This document shows positions 7,173 to 16,804 of a DNA stretch of 32,000 nt, one piece after another (the stretch's first letter is position 1; each line of letters begins with the position of its first letter). The notes beneath the pieces are model-generated. The model saw only the letters and a program-made list of their open reading frames with translations. It had not been told where the DNA came from and ran no database searches. The translations under genes and the position numbers were made by a program. Source of the stretch: Xylanibacter ruminicola 23 (GTDB lineage Bacteria > Bacteroidota > Bacteroidia > Bacteroidales > Bacteroidaceae); contig NC_014033.1 of the NCBI RefSeq assembly GCF_000025925.1, positions 2,910,001 through 2,942,000 on the forward strand, given 5' to 3'.

Positions 7173-7279
7173 AACAAAACTGATGAACAATGAAGAAAAT
7201 GAACATCCCCTTCCGCCCAAAAACTATAAAAAAAACAAAAATAATTGAGAAAACATTTGGAGTTGCAACTAAATTTAGT

Positions 7280-7287
7280 TACCTTTG
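7280..7287 (+). promoter_or_regulatory. -7 box TACCTTTG upstream of hicA
   Basis: TAnnTTTG match ending only 5 nt before the ATG at 7293. Confidence 0.5.
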
Positions 7288-7292
7288 CGGCG

Positions 7293-7553
7293 ATGAATAA
7301 GAAAGATAAACTCATAAAACGGTTTAAGACTCAACCTCGGGATTTTACTTTCGACGAGGTTGTTACATTGTTTCAGGGTTGTGGCTTCGAACTTGAACAC
7401 AAAGGCTCTACATCAGGCTCGCGCGTCAAGTTCTACAATGCAAAGGACGAGAACTCGTACATCATGCACAAGCCCCATCCGAGCAATATTATAAAGGGTT
7501 ACATGATGCGCGACATATTGAATTATCTATTAACCAATAATTATATTAAATAA
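7293..7553 (+). CDS. hicA: HicA-family type II toxin (mRNA interferase)
   Basis: FTFDEVVTLFQGCGFELEHKGSTSGSRVKFYN...IMHKPHP fits the Bacteroidales HicA pattern, and hicB follows 13 nt downstream. The ATG at 7293 is preferred to the TTG at 7245. Confidence 0.75.
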   Translation: MNKKDKLIKRFKTQPRDFTFDEVVTLFQGCGFELEHKGSTSGSRVKFYNAKDENSYIMHKPHPSNIIKGYMMRDILNYLLTNNYIK

Positions 7554-7566
7554 GGAGGATAGTAAT

Positions 7567-7908
7567 ATGGGATATTTGAAGTATAAAGGTTACACAGGTA
7601 GTGTAGAATATAGCGAAGAAGACAAATGTCTGTTTGGAAAGGTGCAGGGAATGGCTAAGGATAGTATTACCTACGAAGGCTCAACTGTAGAAGAACTGAC
7701 AAAGGACTTTGAGGAAGCTATAGATGATTATCTGGCATTATGTGAGGAGAAGGGTATTGAACCACGCAAGCCCTATTCTGGCGTGTTGAATGTCAGACTT
7801 ACCCCAGAGATTCATAGCGGTGCAGCCATAGCAGCCCAGAAAGAAGGCATCACCATCAACGCGTTTATCAAGAACGCCGTTGCACGTGCATTAGGCATGG
7901 TGTTGTAA
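7567..7908 (+). CDS. hicB: HicB-family antitoxin with a C-terminal RHH/CopG-like tail
   Basis: YKGYTGSVEYSEEDKCLFGKVQG...YEGSTVEELTKDFEEAIDDYLALCEEKG...SGVLNVRLTPEIH is the classic HicB fold signature. Confidence 0.85.
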   Translation: MGYLKYKGYTGSVEYSEEDKCLFGKVQGMAKDSITYEGSTVEELTKDFEEAIDDYLALCEEKGIEPRKPYSGVLNVRLTPEIHSGAAIAAQKEGITINAFIKNAVARALGMVL

Positions 7909-8158: not shown

Positions 8159-8464
8159 ATGTGGACAGAACTAAGTGATCCTGCTATCCTGCAGAAAATG
8201 GGACGCAGAATACGTGATTATCGCATGCGTATGGAAATGACCCAAAGCGAACTGGCTGAAAAGTCGGGCGTAAGTATGGGAACAATCGTAAGAGTGGAAC
8301 AGGGCAATCCTATATCCACCTTATTACTTATAAGCATCCTAAGGACCATGGGGCTACTCGAAAATCTGGAAGTTCTACTACCGGAACTCAGTATTAGTCC
8401 ACTACAGATGCGAAAACTACAAGGTAAAAAGGTACAGAGAATAAGACATAAAAAAGAAGAATAA
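8159..8464 (+). CDS. hipB: XRE-family HTH antitoxin (HipB-like)
   Basis: MTQSELAEKSGVSMGTIVRVEQG is an XRE-type HTH. The gene ends 6 nt before hipA. Confidence 0.75.
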   Translation: MWTELSDPAILQKMGRRIRDYRMRMEMTQSELAEKSGVSMGTIVRVEQGNPISTLLLISILRTMGLLENLEVLLPELSISPLQMRKLQGKKVQRIRHKKEE

Positions 8465-8470
8465 ACGACA

Positions 8471-9769
8471 ATGGACGATTTAATAGTCGACATAAAGCTA
8501 TGGGGGAAAATGGTAGGCTCGCTGGCATGGGATAATGCTGCGGGTATGGCAGTGTTTGAATACGATAATGACTTTAGGCGTAATGGTATCGAACCCGCTC
8601 CTCTCACAATGCCATTATCTTTGGGAAATCGCCCTTTCTCTTTTCCCGCAAATAGAACAGACTGTTTTAAAGGTCTACCAGGATTAATTGCTGATGCTCT
8701 GCCAGATAAATTCGGAAATCAGATTATTACAGAGTGGTTTACTCGTCAGGGATTGCCTATAGGCGAGATAACACCATTAGAACGATTGTGCTATGTAGGA
8801 CAGCGGGCTATGGGAGCCCTGGAATTTGAGCCAAGCAAGGCTTCTGACGTACTGAACGAGTCGACCGAGATTTATATCGACGAGTTAACACGATTGGCCG
8901 AGGATATATTTACAAAGCGCGAATCCTTTCAGGAACGCATGTTCCAGCAAGACAAGACTATACTCGATATTCTGCGTGTCGGTACATCGGCTGGTGGTGC
9001 TAAACCCAAAGCAATTATAGCCTACAACGAACAAACAAACGAAGTCCGCTCAGGACAGGTTAAAGCCCCTGATGGTTTTGGCTATTGGCTGCTTAAGTTT
9101 GATGGTGTTACATACTCAGAGCATGGTTCGATAATGGAAAATCCCCAGGGAATTGGAAATGTAGAGTATGCATATTATCAAATGGCCAAAGCTTGCGGCA
9201 TAGATATGGCAGAGTGCAGATTGCTTACCGAAGGTGATAATCATCACTTTATGACTCGCCGTTTTGATCGTACCAACGATGGCGAAAAGATTCATATGCA
9301 GACGGTTGCAGGTCTGGCCCATCTCGACAGAGATCAACGCCATTCGTACGAAGAGATCTTCGGCATTATCCGTAAGATGAATCTTAATATGGATGCCACG
9401 CTACAACTGTATCGCAGGATGGTATTTAACGTAGTAGCCAGAAATAACGATGACCACACCAAGAATTTCTCGTTCCTGATGGATCGCCAAGGCAAATGGG
9501 AGTTAGCTCCTGCCTATGATCTATGCTATTCATATAAACCAGGCGGAAGATGGGTAGGACAACATCAGTTATCGCTTAATGGTAAACAAGACGAACATAC
9601 ACGCCAAGACCTGCTTACTGTTGGCGAAAAGATGGGAATCCGTCGTAGTTCAGAGATTATCGACGAGGTGATTGATGCAGTTAGCCATTGGCGTACTATC
9701 GCTCAAGACTCTGGCGTAAAAGATAGTCATATCACAGAAATAGAAAACAATCTTCTGCTATTGGCATAA
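8471..9769 (+). CDS. hipA: HipA-family serine/threonine kinase toxin
   Basis: HipA N-terminal coupling region (VGSLAWDN...FEYD), then GTSAGGAKPKA and NNDDHTKNFSFL catalytic-loop-like motifs. The length of 432 aa is typical. Confidence 0.9.
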   Translation: MDDLIVDIKLWGKMVGSLAWDNAAGMAVFEYDNDFRRNGIEPAPLTMPLSLGNRPFSFPANRTDCFKGLPGLIADALPDKFGNQIITEWFTRQGLPIGEITPLERLCYVGQRAMGALEFEPSKASDVLNESTEIYIDELTRLAEDIFTKRESFQERMFQQDKTILDILRVGTSAGGAKPKAIIAYNEQTNEVRSGQVKAPDGFGYWLLKFDGVTYSEHGSIMENPQGIGNVEYAYYQMAKACGIDMAECRLLTEGDNHHFMTRRFDRTNDGEKIHMQTVAGLAHLDRDQRHSYEEIFGIIRKMNLNMDATLQLYRRMVFNVVARNNDDHTKNFSFLMDRQGKWELAPAYDLCYSYKPGGRWVGQHQLSLNGKQDEHTRQDLLTVGEKMGIRRSSEIIDEVIDAVSHWRTIAQDSGVKDSHITEIENNLLLLA

Positions 9770-10002: not shown

Positions 10003-10267
10003 GCCACAATTATAAAAATTTGTGGTGACTTTGTACCGATTTCAAGAATAGAGTATGGCAATCTTGCCTGCACAGCATTAGTATTTTTACTATCAGGCTA
10101 CTTCGGCAAACACCCCATCATCCAATAATAAAAATGAGAAAGGCTATCATCTAATGTTAAAAACATGCAGTAAAATTAAATGATTGTGCGAATTGCTATT
10201 AGGTTATAAACATAAAACGACCCGCACATTTGAGCATCGTTGAGAGGCTTGGCGGGTTCTGGTGGTG

Positions 10268-10467: not shown

Positions 10468-10502
10468 AACGACCGCCAATATATAAATATATGGCGGTCG
10501 TT
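10468..10502. terminator. Bidirectional intrinsic terminator (11-bp perfect stem)
   Basis: aacgaccgcca / tggcggtcgtt with a 13-nt AT loop. It is T-rich on both sides and starts 5 nt after the stop of the 10507..11634 gene. Confidence 0.75.
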
Positions 10503-10506
10503 GTTT

Positions 10507-11634
10507 TTATTTTGAGCCCTTTCTCCTGTTACATTCGCGACATAGCATCTGACAGTTTTCTACAACTGTTCGACCTCCATCACGCCATGGCGTAATATGG
10601 TCGCCCTCCATAAACTCAAAGTCGAACTCTTTTCCGCAAATGGCACACTTATGTTCCTGGTTTTCCCATACTTTTAACTTGATATCTTCTGGGAACGCAC
10701 GCAAATCAAGATAGCGCTCATCACCAGTCAATACGTATGGAATAATACCTGATTGTTTCTGAATTTCACTATCACGTATAAGTGCTGATATTTGCTTACC
10801 AATAGCCACCGTATCAAGTGTCTTTGGGGGACCATAAGTATCGTAAAGCCAAGCCCAATCCAGACCTTTCATTATTTTCTTGTATTTCTTCAGGTCGAAA
10901 TTAGTAATAGCCCAATCTAACACATTCTGGAAGTACGACCACAAATTATTAGCATTAGGATCATGCTGATGAGCAGACATATAACTAACAGCCGACATAC
11001 GATGGCCTTGACGTGTTTCGTGATCTGCCATCCATACTAAAGCTGTTTTAAGGAAATCCTGACGGATAGGCGTACCGTTTACTAAGTCTTTACCCAAACG
11101 ATAAGCACCACAATTTGACTTTGAGAAGTGCCGTTTAGCATCAGAAACAAACGGACCAGCAAAGATTGCATTATTAATTTCCTGCTCGTTTAGCGGTTTA
11201 CCTGCAATATTAATGGTCTGGAACCACTCTAACTTCTCGCTGGCATCACCCTCACATACATATACTGTAAGTGGGTAATTTAATATCTTACGCTGAATAT
11301 CCTCAGGCTGATTGAAGAAATTCTTAAAATCATACGAGAACTTACCTGCAACATACTCACAGAGTGAGAGTGTGCGCTGCTGACCATCCATCACTTCGTA
11401 AGGACAATCGGCATCGTTACTTCGTTTTACCCAATACATCACGTTCAAGGGATAGCCATGCAATACCGTTGTGATTACAGCCTGCTGTTCCTTTTCGTTA
11501 TAGATAAACTCGCGCTGGTATGGTGGGCGTATATCAAGTTTACCATTATAACCACGAACACCTTGTTCGTCGTTATTGATGTAACCTTGAGTGATTTCAC
11601 CAACGGTTACTTCTCGTTGAGTAATTGTCATCAT
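10507..11634 (-). CDS. DUF262 (ParB/GmrS-like NTPase-nuclease domain) protein with a C-terminal HNH endonuclease
   Basis: DUF262 signatures RPPYQREFIY, DGQQR and FQTINIAGKPL. The C-terminal HNH zinc-finger region is CAICGK...GDHITPWRDGGRTVVENCQMLCRECNRRK. Confidence 0.85.
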   Translation of the reverse strand: MMTITQREVTVGEITQGYINNDEQGVRGYNGKLDIRPPYQREFIYNEKEQQAVITTVLHGYPLNVMYWVKRSNDADCPYEVMDGQQRTLSLCEYVAGKFSYDFKNFFNQPEDIQRKILNYPLTVYVCEGDASEKLEWFQTINIAGKPLNEQEINNAIFAGPFVSDAKRHFSKSNCGAYRLGKDLVNGTPIRQDFLKTALVWMADHETRQGHRMSAVSYMSAHQHDPNANNLWSYFQNVLDWAITNFDLKKYKKIMKGLDWAWLYDTYGPPKTLDTVAIGKQISALIRDSEIQKQSGIIPYVLTGDERYLDLRAFPEDIKLKVWENQEHKCAICGKEFDFEFMEGDHITPWRDGGRTVVENCQMLCRECNRRKGSK

Positions 11635-12746
11635 ATCGTTCTTGGTTTTTTGTTACGGATGAGAATACGGGAATATGGAACTTTGGGTAACCCGTTCTTC
11701 ATATAATATAGGTCTCCTGCAGCAGAGTGTCCTTTCATTAATCGCTTATGTTCTTTTGGGATACCTCCAACACCAATACTTTGACCTAGTGTACCACTTC
11801 CCAATCCAATTATTTCAAATTGATCAGGGTTGAATTGTCCTAATATCGTATCAGGAACGCCCATTACACCTTCATAATCATATGGAATATCCTGAACTTT
11901 ACCAACATCTATCGCGTCGAAATTGTTGTAATGAGGAAATTCCTCAGGTGAGTATTTACAAACCAAATCCAAAGTTTCATGACGTTTACTAATATCCAAA
12001 TTTGTATACCAGCATATTGCAGGAACTTTAATATAATTGTCATCAGGATTAAGTCCTTTAGACCTAACAAACTTTCGATTTGACTCTAACGTATTTTCAT
12101 ATGGAGCCTTGTATACAGCGGAGAAGTTAAAGTTAAACCCACACCACAATTTGTTTTGAGTGAATAATGGGAAGATTTCTGAATAATGCAGTGCACTCAT
12201 TCTGCCCATAACAATAAACTTCTTTTCGTATTTCATTAACTGACTTATGTATTCTCTAAATAGCGAGAATGGAGGATTAGTAACAACAATATCTGCCTCT
12301 TTCAGCAATTCTATACATTCTGGATCACGGAAATCTCCAGTCTTTAGGATGCTTATCACATTCTTGTCATTTTGCAAAAGATACTGCACGTCACTTAGGT
12401 CTACAGCTCCATCACCATTTAGGTCTTTAACCTCAGTAATTACAACTTTGTGAGCGACCTTCTTTGGCTCGTCCGAAAAATCTCCGAAATCAATCATCAG
12501 CTCATTTCCTTGTACTGGCGAGCCATTGTAGCAGGTACAAATCAGTTTCTTCAGCCCCAGTTGGTTGAATCGAAGGGCGAAGTACTTAAAGAAGTTACTC
12601 TCATAAGGATCATCGCAGTTACACAACACAACCTTATCACGGAAATGCGGCCAGTAGTGCTGCAACTCCCGTTCAATGTCGGTCATCTGCGTGTAAAACT
12701 CATCTTTCTTTGCTGTCTTTGCAGCATTAAGATTTTTGTTTGCCAT
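11631..12746 (-). CDS. N6-adenine DNA methyltransferase, EcoRI-methylase-like family
   Basis: N-terminal KKDEFYTQ...VLCNCDDP and catalytic motif IV VVTNPPFSLF. Its TGA stop overlaps the ATG of the downstream nuclease (ATGA, 11631-11634). Confidence 0.85.
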   Translation of the reverse strand: MANKNLNAAKTAKKDEFYTQMTDIERELQHYWPHFRDKVVLCNCDDPYESNFFKYFALRFNQLGLKKLICTCYNGSPVQGNELMIDFGDFSDEPKKVAHKVVITEVKDLNGDGAVDLSDVQYLLQNDKNVISILKTGDFRDPECIELLKEADIVVTNPPFSLFREYISQLMKYEKKFIVMGRMSALHYSEIFPLFTQNKLWCGFNFNFSAVYKAPYENTLESNRKFVRSKGLNPDDNYIKVPAICWYTNLDISKRHETLDLVCKYSPEEFPHYNNFDAIDVGKVQDIPYDYEGVMGVPDTILGQFNPDQFEIIGLGSGTLGQSIGVGGIPKEHKRLMKGHSAAGDLYYMKNGLPKVPYSRILIRNKKPRTI

Positions 12747-13025
12747 ACGCTATGCTTTTATGCGTATGCTTATCTTCGGAGGCAGGCTATAGGACACAAA
12801 TAAAGCATGGACGATCATCATCCACGCTTCAAAGGCCCTAGGAAGCCTACCAAACCAGATAAGTCACGCCCATGCATATCGCACAGACGTTTGCGACTTA
12901 TTCTTTCGGTTTGGACTTTCTTGAATTTCCTAGGTTCTTGAAGCAGTTCCGAATAACAGCAAACGCTTGTTAATTATTTACCCACATGTCACACCGGCCC
13001 TCCACTGAGGTTTGTGCCAGTGATC
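12747..13025 (-). promoter_or_regulatory. Long (about 275 nt) structured 5' leader of the methyltransferase operon
   Basis: This is the distance between the -7 box at 13031-13038 and the ATG at 12746. It contains mutually exclusive helices (12850-12865 or 12949-12966 pairing with 12886-12914) and a 23-codon uORF (12821 to 12750). Confidence 0.45.
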
Positions 13026-13030
13026 GGTTG

Positions 13031-13038
13031 CAAAGATA
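13031..13038 (-). promoter_or_regulatory. -7 box TATCTTTG (minus strand) for the methyltransferase operon
   Basis: The reverse complement of caaagata matches TAnnTTTG. It is the only consensus box I found between 12747 and 13215 on this strand. Confidence 0.5.
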
Positions 13039-13215: not shown

Positions 13216-13674
13216 ATGAAAAAGATAGACAAAGCAATTAAAAGAATGAGCAGTGTTATAAAAACGCTGCATAAGACGGGTAGAAAGAACTGTAGTAACA
13301 ATTACACCTTCATATACGCGCCTGGTGCGCAGCATGTGGGGCCGATCGACACTCAGATTGTGATAGGCGAAAAGGCATTTGATTCGGATGATGAACAGGA
13401 AACAGAACTACCTGATTGCCTTGCTACCAAGGAGGCGATGCTGCTGTGGCAAAGTGCGATGGACAAAGGATGGGTAGATGAGAACTATCAACCCAAACTG
13501 TCGCGTACCTTGTCGGCTTTGCTGGCTTACGAGATGGCCAAGCGACTTAAAATCAAAGACAAATGGAAAACATTTGAGGAGCTTTGGCATCGTAATAACA
13601 TGCATAGCGATTACAATAAAGCATTAACTCAAAAACAGTCACTTGAATTCAAAGACGAACTAAAAAATTTATAA
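13216..13674 (+). CDS. Hypothetical protein (152 aa, no recognisable catalytic motif)
   Basis: Has its own promoter box and a strong terminator. An acidic linker (DSDDEQETE) precedes a helical C-terminal half (GWVDENYQPKLSRT...KWKTFEELW) that I loosely recall from Bacteroidales mobile-element genes. That recollection is unverified. Confidence 0.55.
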   Translation: MKKIDKAIKRMSSVIKTLHKTGRKNCSNNYTFIYAPGAQHVGPIDTQIVIGEKAFDSDDEQETELPDCLATKEAMLLWQSAMDKGWVDENYQPKLSRTLSALLAYEMAKRLKIKDKWKTFEELWHRNNMHSDYNKALTQKQSLEFKDELKNL

Positions 13675-13818: not shown

Positions 13819-15210
13819 ATGGAGGAAGAAACCAAAGACCAAAAACCCCACTCGGAGCAAGGGGAAACTCAGCACAAGAAGAATTGGCGCGAAGTACGTG
13901 CCACCGAGGAGGATATCCAAAAATTCCTGATGAGCACGCTCTACCTGCGGCATAATGTGATTACGGGTAAGGACGAATTCCGAGTGCCCGAAATCAGCGA
14001 GTATGCGGCCATGGGGATTAAATACCCCACGGGTAAAACGCCATTGGAAGAATGGCGATTGCCTGGCCAATGGTTCGAGATTAGCGACAGGGTGGTGAAC
14101 TCGCTGTGCAGTATGCTGTCGAAACAAAAGGATGTGAATCCCAAGAAAATCTGGCAGGTTATCGACTCTGATTTTGTGCCGTTGTATAATCCGCTGAAAG
14201 CCTATCTGGCCCGACTGCCGCCGTGGGACGAGACGACTAACCCCATACTCTCGTTGGCGATGGATGTAAACGTAAAGGGTGGTCCCGACGAGCAACTGCT
14301 GTTTTACGCCTGTTTGCGCAAATGGCTGGTGGGAGTGGTGGCAGGGTGGCTGGAGGAGAAAGTGGTGAACGAGGAGGTGCTGGTGCTGGTGGGCGAACAG
14401 GGTAACTATAAAACCCGCTGGCTTGAGAGTCTGATACCTCCCGAACTGTCGGCCTATTTCCACTCTACTTCTTCTTTCGGTAAGATGGATAAGGACGAGG
14501 TGCTGAAACTATCATCGTTCGGACTGATTTGTCTGGATGAGATAGATGCGCTGAAGTCAGAGGCAATGAGTAGGCTAAAATGGGCTGTGACCACAAAAGC
14601 TACCGATGCCCGCAAACCGTATGCGCATAATTCGGAACGGCGTGTACACATAGCCAGCTACTGTGGTACCAGCAACAACCTGCAATTTATCGACGACGAT
14701 ACGGGCACCCGCCGCTGGTTGCCGTTCGAGGTGGAGAGTATACGTTCGCCCTACGAGTATCCTATCCACCACGATGAGATTTTTGCCCAGGCCTATCATC
14801 TGTACCAGAGCGGATTCCGCTATTGGTTTGAGAAAAAGGAAATGGATGTTGTGCAGCTGCATAACAAACGGTTCGAGGTGTCGAAACCCGAGCGCGAACT
14901 GGTAAGCAAGTTCTATCGTGTGCCTGCTAAGAACGAACCGTGCGTGTTTGTGAGTGCCTCGGAGATTATGCAAACCATTGGCGGCTTGCTGATACACCGT
15001 TTGACACCTAATAAGCTGGGGCGTGCCATGAAGGCCATGGGCTTTGTAAGCGTGCGCTCACGTGGTGAGCGTGGCTATAACGTGGTGGCGTATAGTGGTG
15101 CCGATATCGACCTGAACAGAACCCTGATGGCCCAGGAAGCCAAGCCTGAGGATGAGGTATCGGTGGTAAGCCACGAAGTTATACTTGACACATTTGACAC
15201 ATTGTTTTAG
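13819..15210 (+). CDS. VapE/VirE-family P-loop protein (phage/plasmid primase-helicase-associated type)
   Basis: N-terminal LRHNVITGKDEFRVPE (VirE_N-like), Walker A-like GEQGNYKT and Walker B ICLDEID. This arrangement is typical of Bacteroidales virulence-protein-E genes. Confidence 0.8.
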   Translation: MEEETKDQKPHSEQGETQHKKNWREVRATEEDIQKFLMSTLYLRHNVITGKDEFRVPEISEYAAMGIKYPTGKTPLEEWRLPGQWFEISDRVVNSLCSMLSKQKDVNPKKIWQVIDSDFVPLYNPLKAYLARLPPWDETTNPILSLAMDVNVKGGPDEQLLFYACLRKWLVGVVAGWLEEKVVNEEVLVLVGEQGNYKTRWLESLIPPELSAYFHSTSSFGKMDKDEVLKLSSFGLICLDEIDALKSEAMSRLKWAVTTKATDARKPYAHNSERRVHIASYCGTSNNLQFIDDDTGTRRWLPFEVESIRSPYEYPIHHDEIFAQAYHLYQSGFRYWFEKKEMDVVQLHNKRFEVSKPERELVSKFYRVPAKNEPCVFVSASEIMQTIGGLLIHRLTPNKLGRAMKAMGFVSVRSRGERGYNVVAYSGADIDLNRTLMAQEAKPEDEVSVVSHEVILDTFDTLF

Positions 15211-15713: not shown

Positions 15714-16265
15714 ATGGCAATTAAAGTAAAAGCAGTAGAGCGCGAGCTCAAGGTAGGCAAGGATGCAGGCAAGTATCGCTTTATGATGCAGGCCGAGATC
15801 TACAACACGTTGTCGGCACAGAAGGTAATTAGCGAGGCCTCTGTTCGTAGCGGTATCGCCGAGGGTGCCCTGAGTGCGGCATGGGATGCCATCGGACAGG
15901 TGGTAAAGGTTTGGGCCACCGAGGGACATTCCATCGCCATCCCTGGTCTGGGACGTATGCGATTCGGTGTGAGGGCCACCACGGTGGATGACGTGAACAA
16001 GGTAAGTACAGGACTGATTACCACCCGACGCGTGATTTTCTCACCATCGGTTGAGATCAAGGATGAGCTGAAGGATACGGCCATCAACATTACCTGTTAC
16101 GACCGTGAGGGTAAGATCGTAAAGCGTGTTACCAGTACCGATCCTGGCAATATCGAGGACCCTGATTCGCCAACCGATCAGCCTTCGACTGGTGGCAACA
16201 ACAGTGGCAATAGCGGAAACACCGGCGGTGGTGGTAACTCAAGTCACGAGCCAATTGGTGATTAA
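15714..16265 (+). CDS. HU-family DNA-binding protein (Bacteroidales long form) with a G/N/S-rich tail
   Basis: The HU/IHF-like core includes a beta-arm region (GLGRMRFGVRAT...RRVIFSPS). The tail is DQPSTGGNNSGNSGNTGGGGNSSHEP. Confidence 0.75.
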   Translation: MAIKVKAVERELKVGKDAGKYRFMMQAEIYNTLSAQKVISEASVRSGIAEGALSAAWDAIGQVVKVWATEGHSIAIPGLGRMRFGVRATTVDDVNKVSTGLITTRRVIFSPSVEIKDELKDTAINITCYDREGKIVKRVTSTDPGNIEDPDSPTDQPSTGGNNSGNSGNTGGGGNSSHEPIGD

Positions 16266-16286: not shown

Positions 16287-16391
16287 ATGGTAAAAGTAAA
16301 TTGGAATAGAGTAGCTAAGGTGTTGCGATTTGTGGCAACAGTGATTACAACAGTTCTGGGAACTATTGCTGTGCAGTCATGCGGACGATAA
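16287..16391 (+). CDS. smalltalk-family small membrane protein (34 aa, absent from the ORF track)
   Basis: My translation is MVKVNWNRVAKVLRFVATVITTVLGTIAVQSCGR*. It has a single hydrophobic helix ending in VQSC, as in Bacteroidales smalltalk proteins, and overlaps the amidase start by 13 nt. Confidence 0.6.
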   Translation: MVKVNWNRVAKVLRFVATVITTVLGTIAVQSCGR

Positions 16392-16804
16392 CCCTGATAG
16401 TGATTCATTGTTCGGCAGTGGAACCAGACCAGACATCATCGGTGGCCCAGATAGATACCTGGCATCGTGATAGAGGCTTTAAGTTTGGTGTAGGCTATCA
16501 CTACGTGGTCCGTCGTAACGGAGAGATTGAGGCTGGCAGACCGGAATGGCTGGTAGGTGCCCACTGCGTGAACCATAACAAGTACTCCATCGGTGTATGC
16601 TACGAGGGAGGACTGAATGCCCGCGGACAACCCGCCGATACCCGCACAGCTGCTCAGAAGGCGTCGTTACGCAAACTGCTGGAAATACTTCACCGCCGCT
16701 ATCCGCGTGCATCGATCGTAGGTCATCACGATCTGAACCCACAGAAGGCTTGCCCATGCATTGATAACGTAGCCAAAGAGTATGCCGACTTGCAGCCCAA
16801 ATGA
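16379..16804 (+). CDS. N-acetylmuramoyl-L-alanine amidase (Amidase_2 / T7-lysozyme / AmpD-like), no signal peptide
   Basis: IVIHCSA...GYHYVV...GAHCVNHN...IGVCYEGG...GHHDL...KACPC are zinc-amidase signatures. Confidence 0.85.
   Translation: MRTITLIVIHCSAVEPDQTSSVAQIDTWHRDRGFKFGVGYHYVVRRNGEIEAGRPEWLVGAHCVNHNKYSIGVCYEGGLNARGQPADTRTAAQKASLRKLLEILHRRYPRASIVGHHDLNPQKACPCIDNVAKEYADLQPK

Follow-up and report, generated by a model that had tools for sequence, protein, structure and literature searches.

An EcoRI-family methyltransferase with exchangeable cassettes beside a near-constant DUF262-HNH nuclease: indications of an unusual division of labour in a restriction-modification module of Xylanibacter ruminicola 23

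Introduction

The stretch of DNA analysed here (the window) comprises 32,000 nucleotides (nt) of the genome of Xylanibacter ruminicola 23 (contig NC_014033.1, positions 2,910,001 to 2,942,000) and carries on its minus strand two overlapping genes, the upstream one for an EcoRI-family N6-adenine DNA methyltransferase and the downstream one for a nuclease in which a DUF262 domain is joined to an HNH domain. Together they are a two-gene restriction-modification (R-M) module on mobile DNA. The pair is catalogued as Type II, yet comparison with related loci indicates a different division of labour between the two proteins, one undescribed in the searchable literature, in which the methyltransferase alone would carry the sequence specificity.

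Throughout the text M denotes the methyltransferase gene and its protein, R the nuclease gene and its protein, and HV1 and HV2 the two hypervariable cassettes of the methyltransferase. All coordinates are those of the window, and residues are counted in amino acids (aa).

Gene layout and domain anatomy

The module consists of the following features, called from open reading frames (ORFs), Pfam profiles, a structure model and motif scans:

11631-12746, minus strand: M, EcoRI-family N6-adenine DNA methyltransferase, 371 aa (ORF and Pfam)
12012-12137, minus strand: HV1 cassette, aa 204-245 of M, type 16 of the 18 types seen
11676-11807, minus strand: HV2 cassette, aa 314-357 of M, type 37 of the 44 types seen
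11631-11634, minus strand: ATGA, in which the M stop codon TGA overlaps the R start codon ATG (read in sequence, within ACGATATGATGACA)
10507-11634, minus strand: R, DUF262(GmrS/ParB-like)-HNH restriction nuclease, 375 aa (ORF and Pfam)
11161-11535, minus strand: DUF262/GmrS/ParB-like nucleoside triphosphate (NTP)-binding domain, aa 34-158 of R (PF03235 GmrSD_N, E = 7.3e-18)
11374-11388, minus strand: DGQQR motif, aa 83-87 of R (read in sequence)
10648-11160, minus strand: all-helical middle domain, aa 159-329 of R (AlphaFold2 model)
10513-10647, minus strand: zinc-ribbon HNH domain, aa 330-374 of R, catalytic D345-H346 (PF01844, E = 3e-15)
10468-10502, minus strand: intrinsic terminator hairpin directly 3' of the R stop codon, dG -24.1 kcal/mol
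13038-13031, minus strand: Bacteroidetes-type -7 promoter box TATCTTTG (motif scan)

M matches the Pfam family PF13651 (EcoRI_methylase) along the entire profile (positions 1-345 of 345; E = 2.5e-150, 501 bits against a cut-off of 26.4) and aligns over its full length with the authentic M.EcoRI of plasmid pU90-3 at 43% identity. A first-pass annotation, made from the letters and their translations, had recognised an EcoRI-methylase-like N6-adenine methyltransferase by the motifs DEFYT (aa 15-19), CNCDDP and the catalytic NPPF (aa 157-160); all three are present, DEFYT and CNCDDP being invariant or nearly so in the family alignment, and the profile match bears the assignment out. HV1 and HV2 both lie in the C-terminal half of the protein, with strongly conserved anchors between and around them, and the HV2 type of the window otherwise occurs only in locus L049, where it stands beside a different HV1. 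A preprint lists only M.SsoI/M.EcoRI as experimentally validated among 19 atypical reference methyltransferases, the EcoRI_methylase group included (bioRxiv 10.1101/2023.12.13.571470).

The fusion of DUF262 motifs to a zinc-ribbon nuclease that the annotation had read in R is likewise present in full: beside DGQQR the protein carries PPYQREF, FQTINIAGKPL and the pattern CxxC...DH...N...CxxC, and both domains are found by profile. Across about 130 diverse members of the family the residues Q40, R41, D83, G84, R87, N142, Q151, E152, N155, C330 and N360 are invariant, while Q85, (Q86), C333, D345-H346, C365 and N369 are nearly so, H346 being kept in at least 90%. The AlphaFold2 model (predicted local distance difference test score, pLDDT, 87.9) shows an alpha/beta N-terminal domain, an all-helical middle and a beta-beta-alpha HNH domain. 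Foldseek matches it to BrxU (the best whole-chain match), the CTP-binding N-terminal domains of ParB proteins, the Gme HNH nickase, McrA, the HNH domains of Cas9, and SspE, with a whole-chain template modelling (TM) score of about 0.2 that is weak since the matches cover single domains only; sequence searches of the PDB return HNH domains only. Both active sites look competent, and the QR and DGQQR motifs suggest nucleotide binding.

A Pfam scan of R finds GmrSD_N and HNH only, with no match to DUF1524, no helicase-type ATPase motifs and no PD-(D/E)XK nuclease. No Ssp or Dnd profile is matched in a PADLOC scan of M and R, and no Ssp or Dnd gene occurs among the Pfam-annotated neighbours in the window. 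Matches of R to the NCBIfam models of IscB and Cas9d reach only 29 bits against cut-offs of 175-375; they stay at the level of the HNH domain and give no evidence of RNA guidance.

The overlap of the two minus-strand genes by ATGA, the terminator and the AT-rich setting had all been described in the first-pass annotation, and all three hold. Both ORFs are present and share the four letters at 11631-11634, an arrangement that allows translational coupling; the zero-gap junction of the window recurs in 40/80 Bacteroidales loci. Folding confirms the terminator, whose hairpin has z = -6.99, with 0/200 shuffles folding equally well. The R-M genes have 39.9% GC; the window as a whole has 47.3%, and the DNA beyond the island in which they lie has 49.0%. 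The two 60-nt lines quoted as about 38% and 58% GC have exactly 38.3% and 58.3%. The further claim of one promoter box serving both genes stands in part. A sole Bacteroidetes-type -7 box lies upstream of M, 285 nt before its start; it may plausibly serve both M and R, with a conserved structured leader, which has an internal terminator-like hairpin, filling the gap from box to M. The Bacteroidetes -7 motif TANNTTTG is itself frequent here, occurring 39 times in the whole window against 21.5 expected (0/100 shuffles reach 39), an excess in keeping with the Prevotella/Bacteroidales origin to which the closest loci point.

Linkage, spread and locus variants

The linkage of M and R was counted over the 235 loci in which 1.1 kb or more of sequence is retained on the upstream side of R. 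On the same strand, an EcoRI-family M precedes R in 80/80 Bacteroidales genome loci, in 77/77 metagenome loci of a second, environmental clade and in 78/78 viral contigs. Whether the adjacency would extend beyond close relatives had been raised in the first-pass annotation; it holds in 235/235 loci, and the M-then-R module is found in at least five phyla as well as on plasmids and viral contigs. Isolate plasmids of Bacillota, Actinomycetota and Pseudomonadota carry it; complete plasmids with the module come from Macrococcoides, Enterococcus, Leuconostoc, Lactiplantibacillus, Ligilactobacillus, Apilactobacillus, Paucilactobacillus, Moraxella and Ruania, and it is also recorded in Mammaliicoccus, Sulfitobacter, Gordonia and Arthrobacter. 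R belongs to a large family, with more than 8000 matching proteins and, at 50% identity, 396 representative clusters that match with E < 1e-30.

The locus has several variants. In one case (P0391) M and R are joined in an intact 717-aa fusion that stands alone in its locus. In L163 (888-1955, 1985-3004 and 2989-4083 of that locus) a single nuclease follows two tandem methyltransferases whose HV1 and HV2 types differ entirely, and L153 also has tandem methyltransferases, the second copy being frameshifted; such an arrangement may point to two specificities, or to an asymmetric site with a separate enzyme for each strand. Elsewhere an extra gene is set between M and R, overlapping the two (L097 1803-2678 and L111 1191-2069, about 290 aa; L234 2957-3997, about 320-350 aa). 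The copies in L097 and L234 have no Pfam match, and the gene may be a third component in some lineages.

Further architectures were seen in passing. A second M-R fusion, P0147 (688 aa, locus L256 5001-7067), has an intact nuclease half and a methyltransferase half with degenerate catalytic motifs, TFPSF for NPPF and CNAGDG for CNCDDP, and no separate methyltransferase was called alongside it in L256; because the locus translated with table 11 does not yield the protein, its source may use another genetic code. On the Lactiplantibacillus plantarum plasmid p9 (L249 1944-4046) a protein of 700 aa bears the annotation of a cytosine-5 methyltransferase, yet its first part matches the EcoRI-family methyltransferase. 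No DUF262 gene adjoins it, and it appears to be a double methylase for N6-methyladenine (m6A) and 5-methylcytosine (m5C). Finally, P0419 (L258 5001-6899, L259 1138-3036), 632 aa long, joins in tandem two complete EcoRI-family methyltransferase modules whose cassettes differ; it is set in a phage-like gene neighbourhood without a nuclease, and is probably an orphan protective phage methylase.

Cassette shuffling beside a constant nuclease

Typing of the cassettes in 164 M-R pairs gave 18 HV1 types and 44 HV2 types in 82 combinations. The types are discrete and common to distant clades; their lengths vary by as much as about 40 residues, and identity between them drops to 0-20%. Two or more nuclease clades share nine of the HV1 types and 16 of the HV2 types, and a single clade holds 33-34 combinations; the nucleases meanwhile range over 77-100% identity. 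Among close relatives R is better conserved than M, and the divergence of M is concentrated in HV1 and HV2. Mean pairwise identities in the Bacteroidales clade are 86% for the nuclease, 86% for the M core, 48% for HV1 and 19% for HV2; the corresponding values in the environmental clade are 78%, 80%, 36% and 20%.

Mantel tests against the nuclease separate core from cassettes. The M core follows the nuclease in the Bacteroidales (r = 0.36, p = 0.002) and in the environmental clade (r = 0.58, p = 0.001), whereas HV1 does so in neither (r = 0.01, p = 0.44, and r = 0.02, p = 0.41, respectively) and HV2 does not in the Bacteroidales (r = 0.02, p = 0.40). Within the Bacteroidales clade no 25-aa window of the nuclease covaries with HV1 or HV2, nor does any nuclease column follow the cassette types (permutation p = 0.43 and 0.08).

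Individual pairs make the exchange visible. Both cassette types are shared in 57% of pairs whose nucleases are at least 97% identical and in 12% of those at 90-93%. Between the two copies in metagenome-assembled genome (MAG) UBA4332 (L022 and L024) identity is 99.7% for the nucleases and 10% for the HV2 cassettes; between those in MAG RGIG4329 (L019 and L029) it is 95.2% for the nucleases, and the HV2 cassettes are of different kinds, although MAG bins can mix strains. L045 carries the HV2 of L005 with a different HV1. In DNA, the identity of L104 to L105 is about 93% over the M core and R and 17-20% over HV2, and the flanks of the two modules are unrelated. The plasmids of Leuconostoc mesenteroides F-22 and Paucilactobacillus oligofermentans DSM 15707 repeat the pattern, with identities of 87% for R, 80% for the M core, 37% for HV1 and 16% for HV2. 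HV1 and HV2 shuffle independently. Mis-assembly of MAGs as the source of the mosaics was rejected, because the same pattern is found in complete isolate plasmids and because cassette types recur in many independent assemblies.

EcoRI-linked methyltransferases as a control

The same methyltransferase family includes enzymes that accompany the EcoRI nuclease. On pU90-3 the authentic M.EcoRI adjoins a gene annotated as 'type-2 restriction enzyme EcoRI', and its cassettes, HV1 type 5 and HV2 type 9, fall within the same mosaic family. Methyltransferases linked to an EcoRI nuclease are 78-81% identical in the core, 92-95% in HV1 and 89-100% in HV2. The two cassettes are therefore the most conserved part of M where the partner is an EcoRI nuclease and the least conserved where the partner is a DUF262-HNH nuclease. 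L127 carries exactly HV1 type 5 and HV2 type 9, yet is paired with a DUF262-HNH nuclease.

The conservation of HV1 and HV2 in EcoRI-linked enzymes supports the cassettes as determinants of specificity, and from this, together with their C-terminal position and cassette-like behaviour, we infer that HV1 and HV2 set DNA specificity. The contrast with the EcoRI control also implies that a DUF262-HNH partner leaves the two cassettes unconstrained.

Catalogue status

Both proteins match curated R-M profiles over essentially their whole length. R matches REase_II of PADLOC-DB (PDLC03418) with E = 1.5e-115, residues 2-374 aligning with profile positions 1-371 of 372, and M matches MTase_II (PDLC03297) end to end with E = 2.5e-114. 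PADLOC would accordingly call the pair RM type II, and the same is expected from DefenseFinder; the R-M profiles of PADLOC presumably derive from REBASE reference enzymes. Public annotation describes R as just a 'DUF262 domain-containing protein', NCBIfam has no model for either M or R, and a full-text literature search returned no paper in which a methyltransferase is coupled to a DUF262-HNH nuclease.

The first-pass annotation had proposed a non-canonical restriction/defence pair, a proposal that a curated family of known mechanism would undercut. The pair does appear to behave unlike a classical Type II pair, but it does not lie outside the curated families; as to mechanism, the literature search turned up none for them.

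Mechanism

Beside dozens of cassette combinations R stays nearly constant, and therefore cannot plausibly encode dozens of matching specificities; it either takes its target from M or reads a mark without sequence. We favour the first of these, in which specificity would reside only in M and R would be a specificity-free subunit acting with M, at a probability of roughly 0.45, because the partner family is exclusive, the cassette diversity has long been maintained, which would be expected were every swap to create a new restriction specificity, an intact fusion exists, and M comes first and is translationally coupled to R. M would then comprise a conserved catalytic half and a DNA-recognition half of two exchangeable cassettes, and recombination between HV1 and HV2 cassettes would yield many specificities. 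R would be recruited or licensed by M bound at an unmethylated target site, its ParB/GmrS-like domain providing an NTP-dependent switch, or a means of dimerisation, for the zinc-ribbon HNH domain, which would cut DNA while methylated host sites are spared. We infer from this scheme a physical interaction between M and R, a need for NTP and a cleavage that m6A blocks. The division of labour would be that of a Type III (Mod/Res) or a split Type IIG system, built from unrelated parts.

A number of points weigh against M-directed cleavage. M.EcoRI-type enzymes methylate unmodified DNA efficiently, and a nuclease directed by M must win that race. Most of the loci are MAGs or metagenome contigs, the EcoRI control comprises three EcoRI-nuclease-linked methyltransferases only, and only one clearly intact M-R fusion was found. 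Coupling of M and R is not obligatory, since other loci carry insertions between the two genes: in L076 a PIN-domain gene and a small upstream ORF, in L158 an ORF that, judged by eye, resembles an IS200-type transposase, and in L097, L111 and L234 the extra gene described above. In the environmental clade HV2 correlates weakly with the nuclease (Mantel r = 0.21, p = 0.009) and certain columns of the nuclease show an association with cassette type (p <= 0.003, uncorrected for phylogeny) that is attributed largely to population structure. DNA contacts of the cassettes find no template, as PDB sequence searches for M, including a profile search at E <= 5, matched no structure. Lastly, if PDLC03418 does derive from REBASE reference enzymes, one of these may have been assigned a recognition site of its own.

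The first-pass annotation had offered two readings, a modification-blocked, NTP-dependent nuclease and an SspE-like reader of m6A, both possible, though the cassette analysis favours M-directed cleavage over them. A general form of the second holds that DUF262 senses m6A whatever its context and thereby switches the HNH domain off or releases R, so that only DNA without the host's m6A marks is cut or nicked and no contact between M and R is needed. A sequence-blind R of this kind would explain the lack of covariation with HV1 and HV2 as well as the tolerance of insertions between the two genes, and the kinship is suggestive: R matches BrxU and SspE in Foldseek, and relatives with DUF262 respond to modification, GmrSD/BrxU to modified cytosines and SspE to phosphorothioate (PMC12707154). 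We nevertheless think it unlikely that R works in this way. Any m6A methyltransferase could serve such a reader, whereas R occurs only with an EcoRI-family M in every usable locus; a diversity of 82 combinations, long maintained, has no obvious benefit if context goes unread; m6A from another source, such as a Dam-type methylase of host or phage, would protect invaders; and the intact M-R fusion suggests joint action.

More doubtful still is an ordinary Type II system, in which R itself reads a fixed sequence, every M methylates that same sequence, and HV1 and HV2 are merely fast-evolving surface segments, for instance under pressure from phage inhibitors. The full-length matches to REase_II and MTase_II in PADLOC and a typical operon layout with a single terminator are what such a system would show. 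The cassettes, however, are precisely the segments that EcoRI-linked methyltransferases conserve above the rest of the protein, and they behave as discrete, independently recombining types across distant clades, at 0-20% identity; moreover, two methyltransferases with different cassettes precede one nuclease in L163. The nuclease is also more conserved than the methyltransferase in this family, the reverse of the usual state in Type II pairs, in which the nuclease is the less conserved partner.

A Type IV-like R that attacks foreign modified DNA, with M serving some other purpose or guarding against off-target cutting, is very improbable, for although the N-terminal domain is GmrSD_N and BrxU the best structural match, R ends in a canonical HNH domain (PF01844) with no DUF1524 match, and universal linkage to M, translational coupling and occasional fusion fit poorly with Type IV enzymes, which to our knowledge need no cognate methyltransferase.

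Comparison with known systems

The EcoRI system has an M of the same PF13651 family, 43% identical over its full length, with cassettes that are among the types of the present family. It differs in three respects: its partner is the EcoRI nuclease, a PD-(D/E)XK enzyme, in place of a DUF262-HNH protein; its gene order is R then M, where here it is M then R; and its cassettes are conserved, where here they are shuffled.

In the way it may work, judged by sequence pattern, the module resembles the Type III systems (Mod/Res, e.g., EcoP15I), in which a methyltransferase with a highly variable recognition region, encoded first, accompanies a conserved restriction subunit that combines NTP binding with a nuclease. 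The parts are different. Res joins a helicase-like ATPase to a PD-(D/E)XK nuclease, and Mod belongs to the beta class of methyltransferases, whereas in the present module Pfam finds a ParB/GmrS-like and an HNH domain in R and the EcoRI family in M.

A likeness to Type IIG/IIL enzymes (e.g., MmeI) lies in the single recognition module that would serve both methylation and cleavage, for which the natural fusion P0391 offers a parallel, and a likeness to the HsdS subunit of Type I systems lies in the combinatorial recombination of two recognition cassettes. Against both, the activities reside on separate proteins in nearly all members of the family, the methyltransferase family and nuclease fold are others, and there is no S subunit.

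GmrSD and BrxU share with R the N-terminal DUF262 domain with DGQQR and a C-terminal His-Me finger nuclease, and BrxU is its best whole-chain match. Here, however, the nuclease is a zinc-ribbon HNH domain (PF01844), always paired with an m6A methyltransferase, whereas GmrSD and BrxU carry DUF1524 and act on modified cytosines without a cognate methyltransferase (PMC12707154). The same paper describes SspE as a protein that joins DUF262 to a nuclease and is linked to a partner that modifies, and so marks, the DNA of the host. R resembles SspE in being a DUF262-nuclease beside such a partner, and matches it weakly in structure; it differs in that SspE combines DUF1524 with a phosphorothioate mark made by a four-gene system, while the mark here would be m6A set by a single methyltransferase.

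Leader RNA and island neighbours

Between the -7 box and the M start lies a structured leader, and other genes of the island flank the module:

12747-13038 (including the box), minus strand: structured 5' leader, about 285 nt, from the -7 box to the M start (conservation and covariation)
12831-12801, minus strand: terminator-like hairpin of the leader followed by a U run, with six covarying pairs (RNAalifold)
7245-7553: HicA (Pfam)
7567-7908: HicB (Pfam)
8159-8464: helix-turn-helix (HTH)/HipB-like gene (Pfam)
8471-9769: HipA (Pfam)
13216-13674: 152-aa ORF, no Pfam match
13819-15210: VapE-like gene (Pfam)
15714-16265: HU-HIG gene (Pfam)
16379-16804: amidase (Pfam)

The leader is found upstream of M in 38/80 Bacteroidales loci at 75-90% nt identity. 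Its RNAalifold consensus has 54 pairs, 13 of them with compensatory changes; all five pairs of the 5' hairpin covary, the last hairpin is followed closely by the start codon of M, and a long-range helix joins two invariant segments that bracket the terminator-like hairpin. Of the cells, 98.1% are paired against 34-52% in slid controls, and the covariation score of 0.224 exceeds the 0.167 of shuffles, with 0/500 reaching the observed value. No Rfam family is matched, either at the gathering threshold or at E <= 10, and a known riboswitch was rejected on that ground. The leader probably controls the operon in the manner of an attenuator, and it is a candidate new cis-regulatory RNA.

The module sits within a lower-GC island of about 9.5 kb (43.2% GC) with ordinary genes on both sides; no integrase was seen in the island. 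HicAB, HipBA and a VapE-type gene had been named as neighbours in the first-pass annotation, and Pfam recovers HicA, HicB, the HTH/HipB-like gene, HipA and the VapE-like gene; the label of a defence island fits this gene content. Between the nuclease terminator and hipA there is, in addition, an abiF RNA motif (Rfam RF03085) at 10220-10256 on the minus strand, scoring 58.5 bits against a gathering threshold of 37, with its own -7 box TACCTTTG at 10275-10268. An AbiF gene beside it was looked for and rejected, the longest same-strand ORF downstream being 64 aa.

Implications

Joined with the leader, M-directed cleavage leads to a broader proposal, which we hold tentatively and at somewhat under even odds: that the module represents an undescribed kind of R-M system, in which a monomeric EcoRI-family methyltransferase with two combinatorially recombining cassettes aims an NTP-switch HNH nuclease that lacks a specificity of its own, a single cassette swap changes the specificity of restriction, and, in Bacteroidales, a dedicated leader RNA controls expression. 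Such a system would be functionally analogous to Type III or Type I, though made of unrelated parts. If R does take its target from M, then a large family of about 400 clusters, found on plasmids, in phages and in islands across bacterial phyla, is now filed under the wrong mechanism. It would also represent a new use for the ParB/DUF262 nucleotide switch, and would explain how restriction specificity can change without the co-evolution of two proteins. The 18 x 44 set of cassettes would be a natural library linking EcoRI-family methyltransferase sequence to motif, and the nuclease would be re-aimable by exchange of its partner. For the Prevotella and other Bacteroidales of rumen and gut, which often carry several copies per genome, these modules are likely to bar both genetic manipulation and phage.

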